Sequence record: PQ362703.1
DNA length: 64,000 bases
Direction: 5' to 3' (one strand)
Source of the DNA: Escherichia phage vB_EcoP_PW8
Within the stretch, counting starts at the first letter, position 1. Each line of letters starts with the position of its first letter. Below are positions 4,025-12,419 of the stretch, one piece after another. The notes beneath the pieces were generated by a model. The model was not told the origin of the DNA and made no database searches. It saw nothing but the letters and a program-made list of their open reading frames with translations. The translations under genes and the position numbers were made by a program.

Positions 4025-5635
4025 TCACACAATGTATGAACGCAGTGGGTTAATACTATCTTCTTCTTCATCATCCCACATTGGGTCACCCTTGTTATCC
4101 ACCATAGTCATACCTGCTTGTGGTTTCCAGGGATTGAGATAACCCAGCATAGAGATAGTATCAATACAGTCATCCTTACCTTTGATTCCATTAATGGTAG
4201 CTAATTTAATCTGGCCCATGAATAAACCCATAATAGTTGAATCTCTCAACTCTTCCGGGAAGTACATTTTACCAGCTTTGAACCATGGAACTACCAGGTT
4301 AAAACGTGACAGCTTAGAGGTTACAGGACGTATGCCTGGCTTACCACCCTCAGAGGATGCAAAGTTAAAGAAGACATTACGGTTAATCATTTCTTTCTGA
4401 AGAAGCGAGATGAACCCACCTTGCTGCCCTGTAATTTCGACCCCAACGTTTTGTGGTTGGTATTCCTGAACCAGACGGAACAGGTCATCAAAGTTTTTAT
4501 CCATAAGCTGACGATTAGCCACACCATCAACCCAGAACCAATCTCCATTAGAACTATAGGCCCAAACTGATATGACACTGTAGTCACTGGTCTGTTTCTC
4601 CGAAGTAGCAAAGTCGGTTGTAATGTAATAGTTGTAGCAGGACTTCATCCTTAATAGTTGCTGTCTGCTATACCATCTAATTTCACTATCCTGAACCAGT
4701 CTCTCATCTTCAGAGCTAATACGGAGCATAAGTTCCTGATAGAAGCCTGCAAGCTTACCCGTCTTAACTGCCATATCATATTGAGCCTTAATGTAGTCAT
4801 AAGAGAAACGGTCATCCCATGCACCCTGAAATTCTTCTCTACTACAAGGGAACTTCTCACACACAGGCCATACGTTGACATCCCATGCACCAGACTCAAC
4901 TGCTTCAATGATAATGTCTTCCTTATTAAAGGGAGTACCATTGAAGATTACTTTACGACGAGTAGGATCAAGGGCATGGTTCACACCTTTATAGACGGTG
5001 TCTTTAATAGCTTCCATGCTTGTTTTAGAGTTAGCATCACCATCACTAATCAGGTCATCCAATACACAGAGTGTTGGACGTTTGCCATATATCTTCGTAC
5101 CACGAAGACCTGTCTTAGCACCAAATAGCTTAACACCAAGTCGATGCCCTTCTACATTACGAAACTCTAACAGGTTATCCGTAAAGGTAGCTTCAGGTAT
5201 CCATTGCTGAAGGAACTCACTATTCTTGTAACGAAACTCAATGTTCTTACGTGCAGACTTAGCTCCGTTATCCATTGAGTCAGATACGTAAATCATTCCT
5301 TCTACCTTACCAAGACTTGGTAAGTGCCCAAACACTGCCAAGAACAAAGTAAAGTATTCCATGAATACAGCAGTCTTACCTGCACCACGGAAGCACAGGT
5401 TAACTACATACTGGTTCGGACTAATCATCTTATCCAGCATCTTCAAGTGAACTGGCGGTGTTTTGTTGGATTCACCTTCCTTACCATTAACCAACTTAAT
5501 GAAGTTGGCAAAGGTAAGAGCAAACTGACTAGGAACATAGTTAGATGAATTTAGGTGGGAGTAATCCACCTGGTCTAGCCATTCATCCAGTTCCTGTTTA
5601 ATTAACTCAGACATCTGTAATGTCCTCATCTGCAC
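4025..5635 (-). CDS. terL: terminase large subunit
   Basis: 536 aa. N-terminal P-loop (FRGAGKTAV) and C-terminal nuclease-like acidic segment (YYITTDFATSEKQTSDYSVISVW). Confidence 0.8.
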   Translation of the reverse strand: MQMRTLQMSELIKQELDEWLDQVDYSHLNSSNYVPSQFALTFANFIKLVNGKEGESNKTPPVHLKMLDKMISPNQYVVNLCFRGAGKTAVFMEYFTLFLAVFGHLPSLGKVEGMIYVSDSMDNGAKSARKNIEFRYKNSEFLQQWIPEATFTDNLLEFRNVEGHRLGVKLFGAKTGLRGTKIYGKRPTLCVLDDLISDGDANSKTSMEAIKDTVYKGVNHALDPTRRKVIFNGTPFNKEDIIIEAVESGAWDVNVWPVCEKFPCSREEFQGAWDDRFSYDYIKAQYDMAVKTGKLAGFYQELMLRISSEDERLVQDSEIRWYSRQQLLRMKSCYNYYITTDFATSEKQTSDYSVISVWAYSSNGDWFWVDGVANRQLMDKNFDDLFRLVQEYQPQNVGVEITGQQGGFISLLQKEMINRNVFFNFASSEGGKPGIRPVTSKLSRFNLVVPWFKAGKMYFPEELRDSTIMGLFMGQIKLATINGIKGKDDCIDTISMLGYLNPWKPQAGMTMVDNKGDPMWDDEEEDSINPLRSYIV

Positions 5636-6296
5636 GTACTAGTTTAGAACCAGCAACCTCTTTGGTAGGTACACCACTATTGATTGCATTAATCTGCTGT
5701 TCAGCTAATGCAGCAAGTGTTGCCTTGAGGTCGGTCAATCCAGAGTTCTCTCTCAAGTCCAGATTGATATTTGTTACCTGGTCTTTTGGTTTAGCTAAGT
5801 GAGTAAGGATAGAGTTAGCTGCATCACATCTTACCTTCTCGCTTGCTGCTGTAGTCATCAGTTCAACCTGAACGTTGATTGCCTTCTGGTAGTTGTCCTG
5901 GTTCACAATCCACACTGGAACCAGACTTTGTTCCATGATGAGGTTAACTAACTTACCTCTGTGATATGCAGATACATAAGCACTAATATCTTTCTCACTG
6001 GTTCCTCGTGCTACTAGTTCTGCTTGTCGGTTAGGGAATGTCTTGAAGTAGGCTTCCTTATTTGAGTAGCCCATATGTTTATAAGTCACATACTGAACTG
6101 CATTCATGTAGTCCTGCGTCTTAAACTTACCTTCCTTCATTACACCAGAGTAGGAGATAAAGTTTTCACGGAAGGACTCAGCAACCAGTTGATCTTGGAT
6201 TATGTTGTTAATTGTGTCTACCAACTCCTGGGTCACACTGTTCTTAAAGTTAGTAGGTAGTGCATTAATAATCTGCTGCTTAGTTAGTTCACTCAT
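5607..6296 (-). CDS. putative terminase small subunit
   Basis: 229-aa ORF immediately upstream of and overlapping terL on the same strand. Assignment by position only. Confidence 0.3.
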   Translation of the reverse strand: MSELTKQQIINALPTNFKNSVTQELVDTINNIIQDQLVAESFRENFISYSGVMKEGKFKTQDYMNAVQYVTYKHMGYSNKEAYFKTFPNRQAELVARGTSEKDISAYVSAYHRGKLVNLIMEQSLVPVWIVNQDNYQKAINVQVELMTTAASEKVRCDAANSILTHLAKPKDQVTNINLDLRENSGLTDLKATLAALAEQQINAINSGVPTKEVAGSKLVRADEDITDV

Positions 6297-6466
6297 ACTT
6301 ATCTCGCTACAAAGTTATGTCTATTAAAGAAGATTCTTTTCTTGGGGTGAGTTACCCCTTGAATAGACGATACCATACAGTTACACTTTAGTCATGATAT
6401 AGAAAAGTTCATGATACTGTATAGTATGTAATGTTCCGATGACCTTATTCCCCAAAGGAGTAACCT

Positions 6467-6757
6467 TTGAGAATCTATATGAGAGTCCACGACTCTAAAG
6501 ATGAATACAAAGAGCTAGACCACACCAAGGCTGGTATTCTTTCAGGTGATATTATCATTACCCATGATGAAGATACTTACCATGAATTAGCTGGGATGAT
6601 GCTGTTAGATAATCGTCATGGCATTAAGATCCTAGAACCAAGAGAAACTTACTCTTTAGAAAAACGTCCTTCATCTCTTGTGTTCTTCACAAAATTACCT
6701 CATAGTGTCTCCGTCAGTCGAAGCAAAGACAGTGTTCGGATGATGGTGACGATGTGA
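6467..6757 (+). CDS. early protein, paralog family member 1
   Basis: Carries the shared core motif (IIITHDEDTYHELAGMMLLDNRHGIKILEP) seen in five downstream ORFs. Track start is TTG at 6467; an ATG lies at 6479. Confidence 0.5.
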   Translation: MRIYMRVHDSKDEYKELDHTKAGILSGDIIITHDEDTYHELAGMMLLDNRHGIKILEPRETYSLEKRPSSLVFFTKLPHSVSVSRSKDSVRMMVTM

Positions 6758-6957
6758 TTAGTCATGCCGCCTAGTAGACAGTGGCGGTACTCGTAAAGAG
6801 TTAATAACTTCTACAGTCAGGGTTGCCCGGCTCCTTTCCTACCTAGTAGGCTAACGATACACATGTATCTAGGGTGATGAACTGACCCGTGATAGAAAAC
6901 GGTAAGGGGTAGAGTCGAGAGGCTCTACCCCATTTCTTTTTCAGGAGGTATGCAATT

Positions 6958-7353
6958 ATGAGCATCTACGCCTTTGACATTGATATTACCGGTGTACTCC
7001 GTAAGCAGGAACCCTACTACCTAGGGGAACCTGAGATGGTTAGTAAATTCCTATCTAAACATGTAGTCTTCCTACCAGACTGTGGGGAATCCCATGAGAT
7101 AGTTGGTTCATTTTTCTTAAGTAATCTGCAAATTAACACTGAGATACTTACTGAACCAAAGGTGTATGATCTTACTGAGTACTCTGACTTCGAAACATTC
7201 TTCCCAGGAATCAGGTTCTATAAAGTACCTGGTTGGGAAATGATTGTTGAACATAACCTATTTAATAAAACGCTTTCCGTTTACTTCAGACACATTCCTA
7301 AAGGAAGGAAAATCCATCATGAAATTCATACTAACCGCCCCCAGTTTTGTTAA
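6958..7353 (+). CDS. early protein, paralog family member 2
   Basis: Core motif VVFLPDCGESHEIVGSFFLSNLQINTEILTEP. Confidence 0.5.
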   Translation: MSIYAFDIDITGVLRKQEPYYLGEPEMVSKFLSKHVVFLPDCGESHEIVGSFFLSNLQINTEILTEPKVYDLTEYSDFETFFPGIRFYKVPGWEMIVEHNLFNKTLSVYFRHIPKGRKIHHEIHTNRPQFC

Positions 7354-7633
7354 AGGGGAATTCTTATACACAACAGACTTTACTTTAGAAGAAGTCATAG
7401 ATAGCAATCCTCAGCATGTAATCCTGGTTCCTACCTTAGAGGATTATCATGAAGTAAGGGGTCAGCTCTTCTTATCAGGTAACGACCGTAAAGTTGTATG
7501 CATCATTCCTCCATCAGTGTATACCGATAGTAGTGCGTATGACGCTTTGCCTTTCATGATGGTATCCGATAACTACCAATGGGATTGTAGGCATGAGGAT
7601 GAGAAATACCATTACTACTATGTAAGGAAGTAA
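7319..7633 (+). CDS. early protein, paralog family member 3
   Basis: Core motif VILVPTLEDYHEVRGQLFLSGNDRKVVCIIPP. Start placed at ATG 7319 (AAGGAAGG RBS) rather than track start 7244. Confidence 0.5.
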   Translation: MKFILTAPSFVKGEFLYTTDFTLEEVIDSNPQHVILVPTLEDYHEVRGQLFLSGNDRKVVCIIPPSVYTDSSAYDALPFMMVSDNYQWDCRHEDEKYHYYYVRK

Positions 7634-7636
7634 GAT

Positions 7637-7960
7637 ATGCACCTGTATTGCCTGCTTAGTTTTGCCACTACATGTTATTTATCCCCATACACGCTGGATA
7701 ATATTCTGGCAGGTAAGGGCAGTGTTACCACCATCCTGTATGAACCAAGTGAAGAAGCAGAAGAGTTCATTGGTTCCTGTATCATGTTAGGAATACCTAT
7801 TACCTTGACTAAGATAAATACTTCCATTGTAGTACCAGAAGGTAAGCTAGTGTATATCTTCTCTTCCCAAGAACCCATGGTAGTTACTACCCTAACTGGT
7901 AGACTTATTACCCTCTATCCTTCTACCTCATATTTATCTAGCGACGAGTGTGCCCCATGA
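7637..7960 (+). CDS. early protein, paralog family member 4 (divergent)
   Basis: Weaker version of the motif (TILYEPSEEAEEFIGSCIMLGIPITLTKINTSIVVPEGK). Same size and tandem position. Confidence 0.4.
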   Translation: MHLYCLLSFATTCYLSPYTLDNILAGKGSVTTILYEPSEEAEEFIGSCIMLGIPITLTKINTSIVVPEGKLVYIFSSQEPMVVTTLTGRLITLYPSTSYLSSDECAP

Positions 7961-8295
7961 ATAGAGTACTGTATCTCCATCAGTATAAGGATGAAGTCTC
8001 TGTTTACTCCGAGAATATCAATGAAGCTATTGAGTGGTTACTACTACAAGACTGTCATATGCTTATGCTATCAGGAGATCTAGCAGATAGTACCCGTGGT
8101 TCAATTCTTCTACTTAATAGCCCGGCTAAGTTAACCATCCTTAATCCGGGGGAATTCATAAAGATACCTGCTGGTGAATCTGCATTCTTGTTCTTTGAAC
8201 CAAGGATAGAAGAAGGGTTTGTCGGGCTTACTATAGATAGTAGACCTAATAAAGATTTTAAAAGAGTAAGGATTATATCCCATGAAACTTACTAA
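7948..8295 (+). CDS. early protein, paralog family member 5
   Basis: Motif MLMLSGDLADSTRGSILLLNSPAKLTILNPGE. Overlaps its neighbours by about 13 nt. Confidence 0.45.
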   Translation: MCPMNRVLYLHQYKDEVSVYSENINEAIEWLLLQDCHMLMLSGDLADSTRGSILLLNSPAKLTILNPGEFIKIPAGESAFLFFEPRIEEGFVGLTIDSRPNKDFKRVRIISHETY

Positions 8296-8608
8296 GATAG
8301 GTTATGCTGGTGGACCTATTTCCACTACCCATACAACCTTACAAGACCTTGTGCCAGGTAGGCTCACTCCTATTATCCTAGTACCGGACGAACAAACACT
8401 GCACGAAGTTAAAGGATTAGCTTTATTACTAAACAAGGAGGTTATCGTAGAAGTCCTTGAACCAGGAAAAGAACTACCATGGTCCTCCTACATGTACTCC
8501 CCCTGGCATGTGAATGCGGATAAGTACACTCTTACCTTTGGTATCACAAATGAACTGCAAACCCCTCACTTGGTATATGCTTCCTCCTATTTATCTGCTT
8601 ATAAGTAA
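8282..8608 (+). CDS. early protein, paralog family member 6
   Basis: Motif IILVPDEQTLHEVKGLALLLNKEVIVEVLEPGKE, the closest match to members 1 and 3. Confidence 0.5.
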   Translation: MKLTKIGYAGGPISTTHTTLQDLVPGRLTPIILVPDEQTLHEVKGLALLLNKEVIVEVLEPGKELPWSSYMYSPWHVNADKYTLTFGITNELQTPHLVYASSYLSAYK

Positions 8609-8752
8609 GATAGCTATCATATTTTTGCATATGAAAAGTAGCATAGTTATGTATGGCTATAGTGCTACACCTGGGGCTACACCCTTACACTCAACCATCC
8701 CCCCCGGTATGTTGACGGTGTAGCCACTACCCTACCCCACCTTACACGTTAC

Positions 8753-8767
8753 ACATGCTCCGCATGT
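8753..8767 (+). promoter_or_regulatory. candidate virion-RNAP hairpin promoter (ACATGC-TCC-GCATGT)
   Basis: Perfect 6-bp stem with 3-nt TCC loop (GGA on the other strand), about 45 nt upstream of the gene at 8810. Same GC-TCC-GC core as the hairpins at 9242 and 12405. Confidence 0.45.
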
Positions 8768-8809
8768 TATGGACATGTCGTCCTATCATCAACTATTGGA
8801 GCTATCATC

Positions 8810-9133
8810 ATGACTACTCAAGCTACTGTACGTATGACTGCAGGAACTTTACTTGGTACTGTTAACTCAGCTGCTACTACTGTTGCAGATACATTCAGCA
8901 CTGCAACTAAAGCAGTAGGTATGCTTAATTCGTATGTTAGTACGATGGCAGAGAAACAAGCCATTCGTACTAAATTAGAAATGCATACCTTTGTTAATAA
9001 ACTGGCTGAAGAAACAGCTATGACCGAGACTCTGCGTAAGAAAAGTATTGAGGAATTCTGCAAGGATTCAGAGAACGCTCGTATCTATAACGCAGAATAT
9101 TCAAAAGTAATCGACATCCTGACTAAAGACTAA
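8810..9133 (+). CDS. early protein, hypothetical
   Basis: 107-aa ORF with GGAG RBS, preceded by a hairpin promoter candidate and followed by a strong terminator. Confidence 0.45.
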   Translation: MTTQATVRMTAGTLLGTVNSAATTVADTFSTATKAVGMLNSYVSTMAEKQAIRTKLEMHTFVNKLAEETAMTETLRKKSIEEFCKDSENARIYNAEYSKVIDILTKD

Positions 9134-9141
9134 GTCACCTA

Positions 9142-9168
9142 GGAGGCTCTTCGGAGTCTCCTTTTATA
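9142..9168 (+). terminator. intrinsic terminator (8-bp stem, TTCG loop, T-tract)
   Basis: GGAGGCTC-ttcg-GAGTCTCC followed by TTTTAT. Confidence 0.65.
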
Positions 9169-9241
9169 AACATTAGATAGATAGTCAAAAGTAGATAACT
9201 ATCTACTTTAAGTTAACTAACTCGCACTATCTTTAAAAGAA

Positions 9242-9256
9242 AGACGCTCCGCGTCT
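9242..9256 (+). promoter_or_regulatory. candidate virion-RNAP hairpin promoter (AGACGC-TCC-GCGTCT)
   Basis: Perfect 6-bp stem with TCC loop, 12 nt upstream of the ATG at 9268. Confidence 0.45.
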
Positions 9257-9267
9257 AAAGGATAAGA

Positions 9268-9747
9268 ATGAATCCACTTCTTATCGAAATCTTAAGTCTT
9301 TTCTTGGGTTTAGTCACCGACGGACAAACCCATAAATCAAAAAATCATTTATCTGGAGAGTACAAAATGTCTATTCAAAAATTCACTTTCGGTCAATCTA
9401 ACGCTGCTGCTTCTACTGCTAAAACTGATAAACCAAAAGCTCAGTTATGGCTGAACATTGGTTATGTAGCTAATGAAGGCTCTGATGATGAGAAATTCAT
9501 CTCTCTGCCTACTGGTATTCCACTGGATACTCAGGAACCGCTGCCTACTAATAGCAGCAATGCTGACTTCCGTGCTATGCGTTGTGCACAGAACGACTTG
9601 CTGGAACAGTTAATCGCATATGCTCAGAACCTGGAACCAGGTGAAGAGGGTATCATTAACCTGCAAGTTCAACTTCGTCGTGTGAAAGCAGAGGCTGCTG
9701 ACATCCCAGCAGACGAGAATAAATATGCCCGTAAACTGACTTTCTAA
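9268..9747 (+). CDS. early protein, hypothetical
   Basis: 159-aa ORF. An alternative ATG at about 9366 has a GGAGAG RBS. Strong terminator follows. Confidence 0.45.
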
Positions 9748-12404: not shown

Positions 12405-12419
12405 AGCTGCTCCGCAGCT
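12405..12419 (+). promoter_or_regulatory. candidate virion-RNAP hairpin promoter (AGCTGC-TCC-GCAGCT); could also act as terminator
   Basis: Perfect 6-bp stem with TCC loop, about 35 nt upstream of the RNAP II small-subunit gene. Followed by TTTTGG. Confidence 0.4.

Follow-up and report, generated by a model that had tools for sequence, protein, structure and literature searches.

A tandem expansion of the N4 gp70/gp71 family and a conserved structured RNA at the right genome end of Escherichia phage vB_EcoP_PW8

Six consecutive small open reading frames (ORFs), here named A to F, occupy positions 6467-8608 of a 64,000-nucleotide stretch of DNA from Escherichia phage vB_EcoP_PW8 (sequence record PQ362703.1); the whole stretch is referred to as the window. 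The locus raises the question of whether these genes belong to one family, from which promoter and at which stage of infection they are transcribed, and what they might do for the phage. A preliminary description, made from the sequence alone, had read them as a tandem family of early genes and as a candidate anti-defense or host-modulation system. We show here that the six ORFs represent a lineage-specific expansion of the N4 gp70/gp71 family, which is found only in Schitoviridae, that no other coding DNA follows the array at the right genome end, where it sits between gp69 and the right terminal repeat, and that the gp70 gene is followed by a conserved, covarying 142-nt RNA and an intrinsic terminator just before the ribosome-binding site (RBS) of gp71. 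The RNA is the most novel element of the locus and was absent from the preliminary description.

The six ORFs and the gp70/gp71 family

Over positions 6300-8800 the window is 84-88% identical to Gamaleyavirus phages (pSb-1, VTCCBPA_322, IME11, EC1-UPM and others), which are G7C-like N4-type podoviruses of the family Schitoviridae. The six consecutive ORFs were found at the coordinates first noted, all on the + strand. Member A (6467-6757, 96 aa, phrog_7213) is the orthologue of N4 gp70, with which it shares 33% identity (tblastn, E 2e-9), and its profile matches were N4 gp70 (2.7e-23), Axy13_070 (1.4e-16) and KP8_072 (6e-15). Member B (6958-7353, 131 aa, phrog_9160) is the orthologue of N4 gp71 (profile matches to N4 gp71, 1.5e-9, and KP8_071, 5.9e-12). 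Its counterpart is annotated as 'similar to N4 gp71' in phage G7C, where the genes of the locus are named gp70, gp71, gp71.1 and gp71.2. Members C (7319-7633, 104 aa, phrog_11661) and D (7637-7960, 107 aa, phrog_12099) correspond to G7C gp71.1 and gp71.2, respectively, E (7957-8295, 112 aa, phrog_12606) is the orthologue of KP8_069, and F (8282-8608, 108 aa, phrog_16338), the last gene before the terminal repeat, is present only in some relatives. These four members are tied to the gp70/gp71 family through profiles. Phage KP8 carries orthologues of A, B and E, and gave weak family matches only for KP8_070 and KP8_063 (E about 1e-3 to 6e-3). Both gp70 and gp71 are kept in phages of Escherichia, Klebsiella, Achromobacter and Pseudomonas. 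Because members B to F abut or overlap (C by 35 nt with the end of B), they form one translationally coupled operon.

In a scan of the 38,880 PHROGs families, the matches ranked second for each member came from the array itself, with next-best E-values of 1e-4 (A to F), 1.6e-3 (C to F), 0.1 (C to B), 0.1 (D to E), 0.27 (E to A) and 0.05 (F to C). Orthogroup alignments were made from the array of 13 related loci and the resulting profiles were compared with each other. This comparison connected A with F (8.6e-6), C with F (3.4e-6), B with C (7.4e-5), D with E (3.7e-4) and A with E (7e-4), against values of 0.15 or worse for neighboring genes outside the family. Leave-one-out profiles recovered A to F at 1.5e-5, 6.3e-6, 1.4e-6, 4.2e-4, 1.1e-3 and 4e-6, respectively; among the controls, reversed sequences gave 0.18-0.5 (D reversed, 0.42) and the genes gp1, x9 and G (see below) 0.3-0.7. 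The similarity is thus beyond chance as judged against reversed and neighbor controls, and the reading of the ORFs as a tandem paralogous family of unknown function held, with D and E being the weakest members by sequence and D the most divergent. The core motif that had been described for all members is present and is looser than described: the glycine alone is invariant, two prolines are nearly so, and the HE pair occurs in A, B, C and F and is missing from D and E. No DNA-level tandem repeat was detected in the array (6300-8700), which has only a few short shared patches, and the duplications behind the array are therefore old. The literature and annotation searched contained no statement that the six are paralogues, and PHROGs files them as the six separate families given above, which could be merged.

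Structure prediction pointed in the same direction. The AlphaFold models compared were those of E (predicted local distance difference test score, pLDDT, 70.5) and F (pLDDT 78; predicted template modeling score, pTM, 0.71). The two models have the same core element order, a beta-alpha-beta-beta core followed by two C-terminal strands, and retrieved the same set of proteins from BFVD, all from Schitoviridae. Structural comparison also revealed a three-layer alpha/beta arrangement over about 77 residues in common with a known structure. A RecA-like ATPase or helicase domain was considered and rejected, as the combination of a strong structural match and nucleotide-binding motifs was not found. 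The preliminary description had named a match to a well-characterized family among the outcomes that would speak against it; no such match appeared, since none of the six members hit Pfam, NCBIfam or PADLOC (which covers defense proteins, not anti-defense proteins) and PDB sequence profiles gave no match (best E 0.56). Sequence and fold searches showed no likeness of any member to ToxN, AbiE or a known RNA-binding fold, and no DNA-binding fold match was found for the array proteins. The family is a domain of roughly 100 residues with an alpha/beta fold and without a characterized relative. An exhaustive profile search of 1.84 billion representatives returned 18 matches, two of which are repeat-protein artefacts, and because of these few matches and the lack of hits in Pfam, NCBIfam, PADLOC and PDB, the family is considered small, phage-specific and undescribed. 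Metagenomes contain hundreds of intact orthologues for each of the six members. Two gp70 orthologues (P0144 and P0165, 86% identity) are assigned to Enterococcus faecium, on a contig of 2.76 Mb; coliphage sequence has apparently entered this Gram-positive genome record by contamination or chimeric assembly.

The number of genes at the locus differs between relatives: N4 has two members and the 42-aa gp72, G7C has four and the PW8 window six, and seven genes are present in IME11, PGN829.1 and the related locus L007 if a second copy of E and an unrelated inserted gene (G) are counted. E is duplicated again (E') in Mimir124, ST4 and IME11, and the copy-number variation is concentrated at the distal, terminus-proximal end. 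Gene G, the orthologue of KP8_065, encodes 104-110 aa and is inserted within the array of some relatives (L011:3497-3811, L014:3500-3829, L013:3443-3757 and L017:5616-5948). It has no Pfam match; its KP8 orthologue carries an HExxH motif (HELNH). D and F share a C-terminal SYLS patch of 17 nt (7923-7939 and 8580-8596) that is 88% identical at the DNA level. In G7C, gp71.2 (L018:4175-4486) corresponds to D but ends in the C-terminal residues of F (...LYPSSYLTAYK), and the terminal repeat comes directly after it, and the 17-nt patch falls exactly at the point where gp71.2 switches from D to F. Recombination at this patch appears to have removed E and F in G7C. Because hybrid gene and patch coincide at the same point, we suggest that copies may have been lost and gained by unequal recombination between members.

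The ratio of nonsynonymous to synonymous substitution rates (dN/dS), calculated with up to 13 relatives, was 0.29 for A, 0.16 for B, 0.17 for C, 0.23 for D, 0.12 for E and 0.24 for F, and because all values lie between 0.12 and 0.29 they indicate that the six genes are under purifying selection. There was no direct sign of positive selection, the average dN/dS being below 0.3, and all six genes are kept intact in most relatives. Nonsynonymous divergence itself (dN) was 0.05-0.25 for the six members, compared to 0.009-0.011 for terminase and gp69 and 0.029 for gp1 and gp2. With two to seven genes across relatives and a dN that exceeds the terminase value 5- to 25-fold, the tandem amplification and divergence described earlier was borne out.

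A structured RNA and a terminator between gp70 and gp71

Gamaleyaviruses show almost no variation in the gap of about 200 nt between A and B, which can be aligned to the corresponding regions of N4, KP8 and Achromobacter phages, with compensatory changes in the stems and a frame-breaking indel. The gap harbors the structured RNA element (6761-6902, + strand, 142 nt), which consists of seven helices, including P1 to P6, with a multi-branch core, and of the unpaired conserved boxes AATAAC..C..CAG, CUCCU (6831-6835) and GAUGA. RNAfold applied to the window copy alone predicted the seven helices that had also been read from the comparison (-39.6 kcal/mol). A covariance model (R1) was built from Gamaleyavirus copies only. 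In four further genera, R1 found one full-length + strand match directly after the gp70 homologue, with E-values of about 1e-10 (KP8 type), 1e-8 (N4), 6e-8 (Inbricusvirus) and 5e-7 (Dongdastvirus); within the window, 6761-6902 was the sole match. In the R1 alignment, 98% of the cells are paired, both sides change in 26 of the 33 pairs and all seven helices covary. The covariation score was 0.64, compared to 0.19 for shuffled alignments (none of 500 reached 0.64) and 0.03-0.08 for slid partners. Because G-U cells outnumber A-C cells by 31 to 6, the pairing indicates that the structure belongs to the + strand. Mean nucleotide identity is 93.5% for the RNA element versus 87% for A and 79% for B, the array genes ranging from 73 to 89%.

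The RNA element is followed by an intrinsic terminator (6906-6941, + strand) with an 11-bp stem, a GAGA loop and then ATTTCTTTTT; the RBS (CAGGAGG) and the ATG of B come directly after it. A hairpin with a T-run is found at the same place in N4, KP8, Axy12 and Axy13, and gp70, RNA, terminator and gp71 co-occur in a fixed order in every clade examined. Rfam contained no match for the RNA: positions 6200-9400 were clear at E<=1, and a chance lncRNA (long non-coding RNA) match lay elsewhere. A pattern scan of IMG/VR followed by the R1 model detected the element only in N4-sized contigs, and the RNA is not mentioned in the literature searched. The arrangement by which terminator-based riboregulators can be recognized, a structured RNA followed by an intrinsic terminator upstream of a gene, is found here. 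As in terminator-based RNA leaders (riboswitches, attenuators and protein-binding leaders), several helices precede a terminator and the RBS of the next gene. Unlike such leaders, the RNA lies between two paralogous genes inside an operon and not at the 5' end, matches no Rfam family and, by inspection, showed no conserved anti-terminator.

The right genome end and transcription of the array

The preliminary description had placed the array immediately after the late/early boundary and therefore among the early genes. A direct terminal repeat maps to 8671-9068, where the annotated 403-bp terminal repeat of Mimir124 aligns at 95%, and the alignments of the G7C and Axy13 terminal repeats begin at 8673 and 8666, respectively. 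The position of the array as the last coding DNA of the right end follows from this repeat, which begins about 60 nt after F. It includes the 5' part of gp1 and the first hairpin promoter of the virion RNA polymerase (vRNAP). Because the repeat is present in a single copy, the window is a wrapped (circularised or concatemer-like) representation in which the right and left genome ends are joined. Upstream of the array lie the genes for the terminase large subunit (4025-5635) and gp69 (5607-6296, annotated as small terminase in relatives), both on the - strand; gp1 (8810-9133) and gp2 are located downstream.

N4 uses hairpin promoters for its early genes, each with a GC-rich heptamer and, on the template strand, a GGA loop. 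All vRNAP promoters lie at the left end, the first part to be injected; entry of the remaining genome has to wait for middle transcription, and the right end comes last (PMC4496689). The heptamer GCTCCGC flanked by inverted repeats was found exactly three times in the window, at 8757, 9246 and 12409, always on the + strand and downstream of the array. The corresponding hairpins, at 8755-8767 (CATGC-TCC-GCATG, with the GGA loop on the template strand) and at about 9242-9256 and about 12405-12419 (both stem-TCC-stem around the heptamer), precede gp1, gp2 and a third early unit, and one of the three is identical to a published KP8 promoter (PMC6950046). The first hairpin agrees with the promoters described for N4 (PMC4496689) and with P1-P4 of KP8 (PMC6950046). 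No vRNAP hairpin promoter is present in 6297-8608. Because all GCTCCGC hairpins are downstream and the right end enters last (PMC4496689), the array is not early in the N4 sense and lies outside the early region of the virion polymerase. The assignment of the array to the early genes was not supported, as the terminal repeat separates the two. The first vRNAP hairpin lies within the terminal repeat, so that a copy of it is also located at the right end, pointing outwards.

A sigma-70-type promoter candidate is present upstream of gp70 at 6359-6387 (+ strand) and consists of a -35 box TTGAAT (6359-6364), a 17-bp spacer and a -10 box TACACT (6382-6387). The pattern TTGnnn-17-TA[GC]ACT occurs once upstream of gp70 in all 11 clade representatives, the spacing always being 17 bp and the distance to gp70 74-92 nt in ten of them; in Moo19, the distance to the annotated start is 53 nt. 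When both strands of the 64-kb window were scanned, the strict pattern occurred only at 6359. The array may thus have its own promoter for the host sigma-70 polymerase. The promoter candidate is followed by a conserved gp70 leader (5' untranslated region; 6388-6466, + strand) with the RBS AAGGAG at 6455-6460. Between N4 and Achromobacter phage Axy13 the leader shows 76% identity, far more than is seen for the proteins, as gp70 of either phage is only 34-35% identical to A. By eye the leader forms two hairpins, which are retained in the window version with stem sequences that differ between clades. A further, conserved GC hairpin, GGGGTGAGTTACCCC (6346-6360), preceded by TTCTTTTCTT, is located between the gp69 start and the gp70 promoter and also occurs in N4 and KP8; it has a T-run after it on neither strand.

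Proposed function, alternatives and gene starts

The explanation of the whole locus that we favor, and judge slightly likelier to hold than to fail, combines a phage-specific family expansion, a non-early right-end operon, an attenuator composed of RNA and terminator, and small binding proteins. The array would have a sigma-70-type promoter of its own, probably used by host RNA polymerase. Transcription would begin after entry of the right end into the cell, in the middle or late phase of infection. Transcripts that stop at the terminator would be gp70 mRNAs whose 3' end is structured, those that pass it would extend into B to F, and the RNA and terminator would together act as an attenuator that sets the read-through from gp70 into gp71 and C to F. 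Alternatively, the RNA might modulate gp71 translation, as the unpaired CUCCU box is by inspection complementary to the gp71 Shine-Dalgarno sequence over 4-6 bp and could mask it. This regulatory logic is a conjecture, because no conserved anti-terminator was found. The family proteins may be small binding modules and not enzymes, since a small single domain with one invariant glycine has no conserved catalytic residues. Because gp70 and gp71 are kept across two subfamilies and several host genera, they might serve a conserved core function, perhaps one linked to the RNA, and the distal copies, because of their fast divergence and variable copy number, might be accessory host-interaction or counter-defense factors. 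Binding modules and a division into core and accessory proteins make up the weakest part of the proposal.

Several observations weigh against this explanation. The promoter is supported solely by its agreement with the consensus (8 of 12 positions), which scores below the threshold of the scan tool, and the T7-like N4 RNAPII, which also stops at hairpin terminators, could equally be the polymerase that uses the array region. Covariation was counted on an alignment fitted to the model, inspection revealed no alternative anti-terminator pairing that is conserved across clades, and any RBS has GGAG, so that the complementarity of CUCCU is weak evidence. The model of E is of moderate quality and D, the most divergent member, is outside the modeled set. 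The functions proposed for the proteins derive solely from their evolutionary pattern, and the literature searched contained no transcript or protein data for the array genes of any N4-like phage. That gp70 and gp71 are conserved in phages of different hosts speaks against a role in anti-defense alone. Of the earlier proposal of an anti-defense or host-modulation family, the amplification and divergence stand; retention of A and B across two subfamilies with different hosts is more in line with a core role than with a pure arms race, and there was no direct sign of positive selection. An anti-defense function is plausible for the family. In a more far-reaching version, which we regard as doubtful, the RNA would be a new class of riboregulator of several Schitoviridae genera that senses a phage or host signal or binds a gp70-family protein, and that gates transcription and translation of small phage-specific effectors from the last-injected end, with gp70 and gp71 as dedicated partners and the expanded copies as diversified effectors against host factors or defenses.

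The order of structured RNA and protein genes also allows a direct partnership between the two. Type III toxin-antitoxin loci of the ToxIN type have the order RNA, terminator, protein gene, which the layout of the array resembles. Members of the family might bind the RNA in autoregulation or in a ribonucleoprotein, or the RNA might neutralize the downstream protein as in such systems. RNA and gp70/gp71 occur together in fixed order in every clade examined, and conservation is much stronger in the RNA than in the proteins, which would suit a binding target that they share. Unlike ToxI-type antitoxins, however, the RNA has no tandem repeat array (6300-8700), the array proteins show no match to ToxN- or AbiEii-type endoribonucleases or to a known RNA-binding fold in sequence or fold, and there is no indication of toxicity, which makes such a module quite unlikely. 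Alternatively, the conserved non-coding stretches might act as DNA, for instance as a replication origin or as a packaging or end-recognition site, and the proteins as DNA-end factors or as accessory factors in replication or packaging. The array adjoins the terminase genes and lies no more than 2.3 kb from the genome end, non-coding sequence is better conserved across subfamilies than coding sequence, and extruded DNA hairpins are already employed in N4 biology (PMC4496689). The strand bias of the pairing (31 G-U versus 6 A-C cells), the + strand intrinsic terminator that ends the element in every clade, the location of the element within a transcription unit that has its own promoter, and the lack of a DNA-binding fold match for the proteins all speak against this reading, and we consider a DNA site improbable.

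An expression of the array right after infection, as a set of host-takeover or anti-defense genes belonging to the early region, is very unlikely. In the wrapped window the array lies just upstream of gp1, gp2 and the early genes and has the same orientation, transcription might conceivably continue from F through the repeat into these genes in replicating concatemers, and fast evolution with variable copy number is typical of counter-defense genes. In virion DNA, however, the terminal repeat splits the array from the early genes, the three hairpin promoters are all downstream of it, and in N4 the vRNAP promoters are at the first-entering left end with the remaining injection requiring middle transcription (PMC4496689); the retention of gp70 and gp71 in phages of four host genera (Escherichia, Klebsiella, Achromobacter and Pseudomonas) does not fit this alternative either. 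High divergence and the lack of a function and of domain matches might also be expected if some or all ORFs were non-functional remnants whose similarity is a relic of old duplications. This possibility is effectively refuted by the six intact genes in most relatives with dN/dS values of 0.12-0.29, by the hundreds of intact metagenome orthologues for each member, by confidently folded models and by the tight packing of genes with coupled starts.

The favored explanation, a non-early operon with an RNA attenuator, can be compared with what is described for related phages. N4 gp70/gp71 and G7C gp70 to gp71.2 have the same position between gp69 and the right repeat, the same strand and the same spacer of about 200 nt with RNA and terminator. 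They differ from PW8 in the number of members, two and gp72 in N4 and four in G7C, which lacks E and F, and none of these right-end genes has a described function. For KP8, ten rightward hypothetical ORFs were reported at the 3' end, with numbers that vary between N4-like phages (PMC6950046). This cluster contains the orthologues of A, B and E, but also unrelated small genes; the description is positional only and does not mention paralogy, a common fold, the promoter or the RNA (PMC6950046). N4 is a classic model phage, and its rightward right-end genes gp70 to gp72 are without assigned function or transcription class. One phage-specific family, a conserved promoter and a covarying RNA together lead to testable questions on this neglected corner of the genome, namely the polymerase and the timing of array transcription, the signal or binding partner of the RNA, and the targets of the proteins. 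If the distal copies are counter-defense factors, the repertoire of such factors would gain a new fold, and if the RNA is a regulator, it would represent a new RNA family with clean covariation support.

Two gene starts could be refined. ATG 7319, the start annotated in relatives, is the most likely one for member C; a start at TTG 7244 was rejected as an upstream extension, since the proteins of the relatives begin at MKF. For member A, TTG 6467 is the most likely start, because the RBS AAGGAG lies 6 nt before it and the N-terminus MR[IL][FY] is conserved; read from this TTG, the N-terminus aligns with that of gp70 of N4, KP8 and Axy13. Many relatives in GenBank have gp70 annotated from ATG 6479, four codons after TTG 6467, which results in a protein of 92 instead of 96 aa, and the gp70 start codon could be corrected in many of these records.

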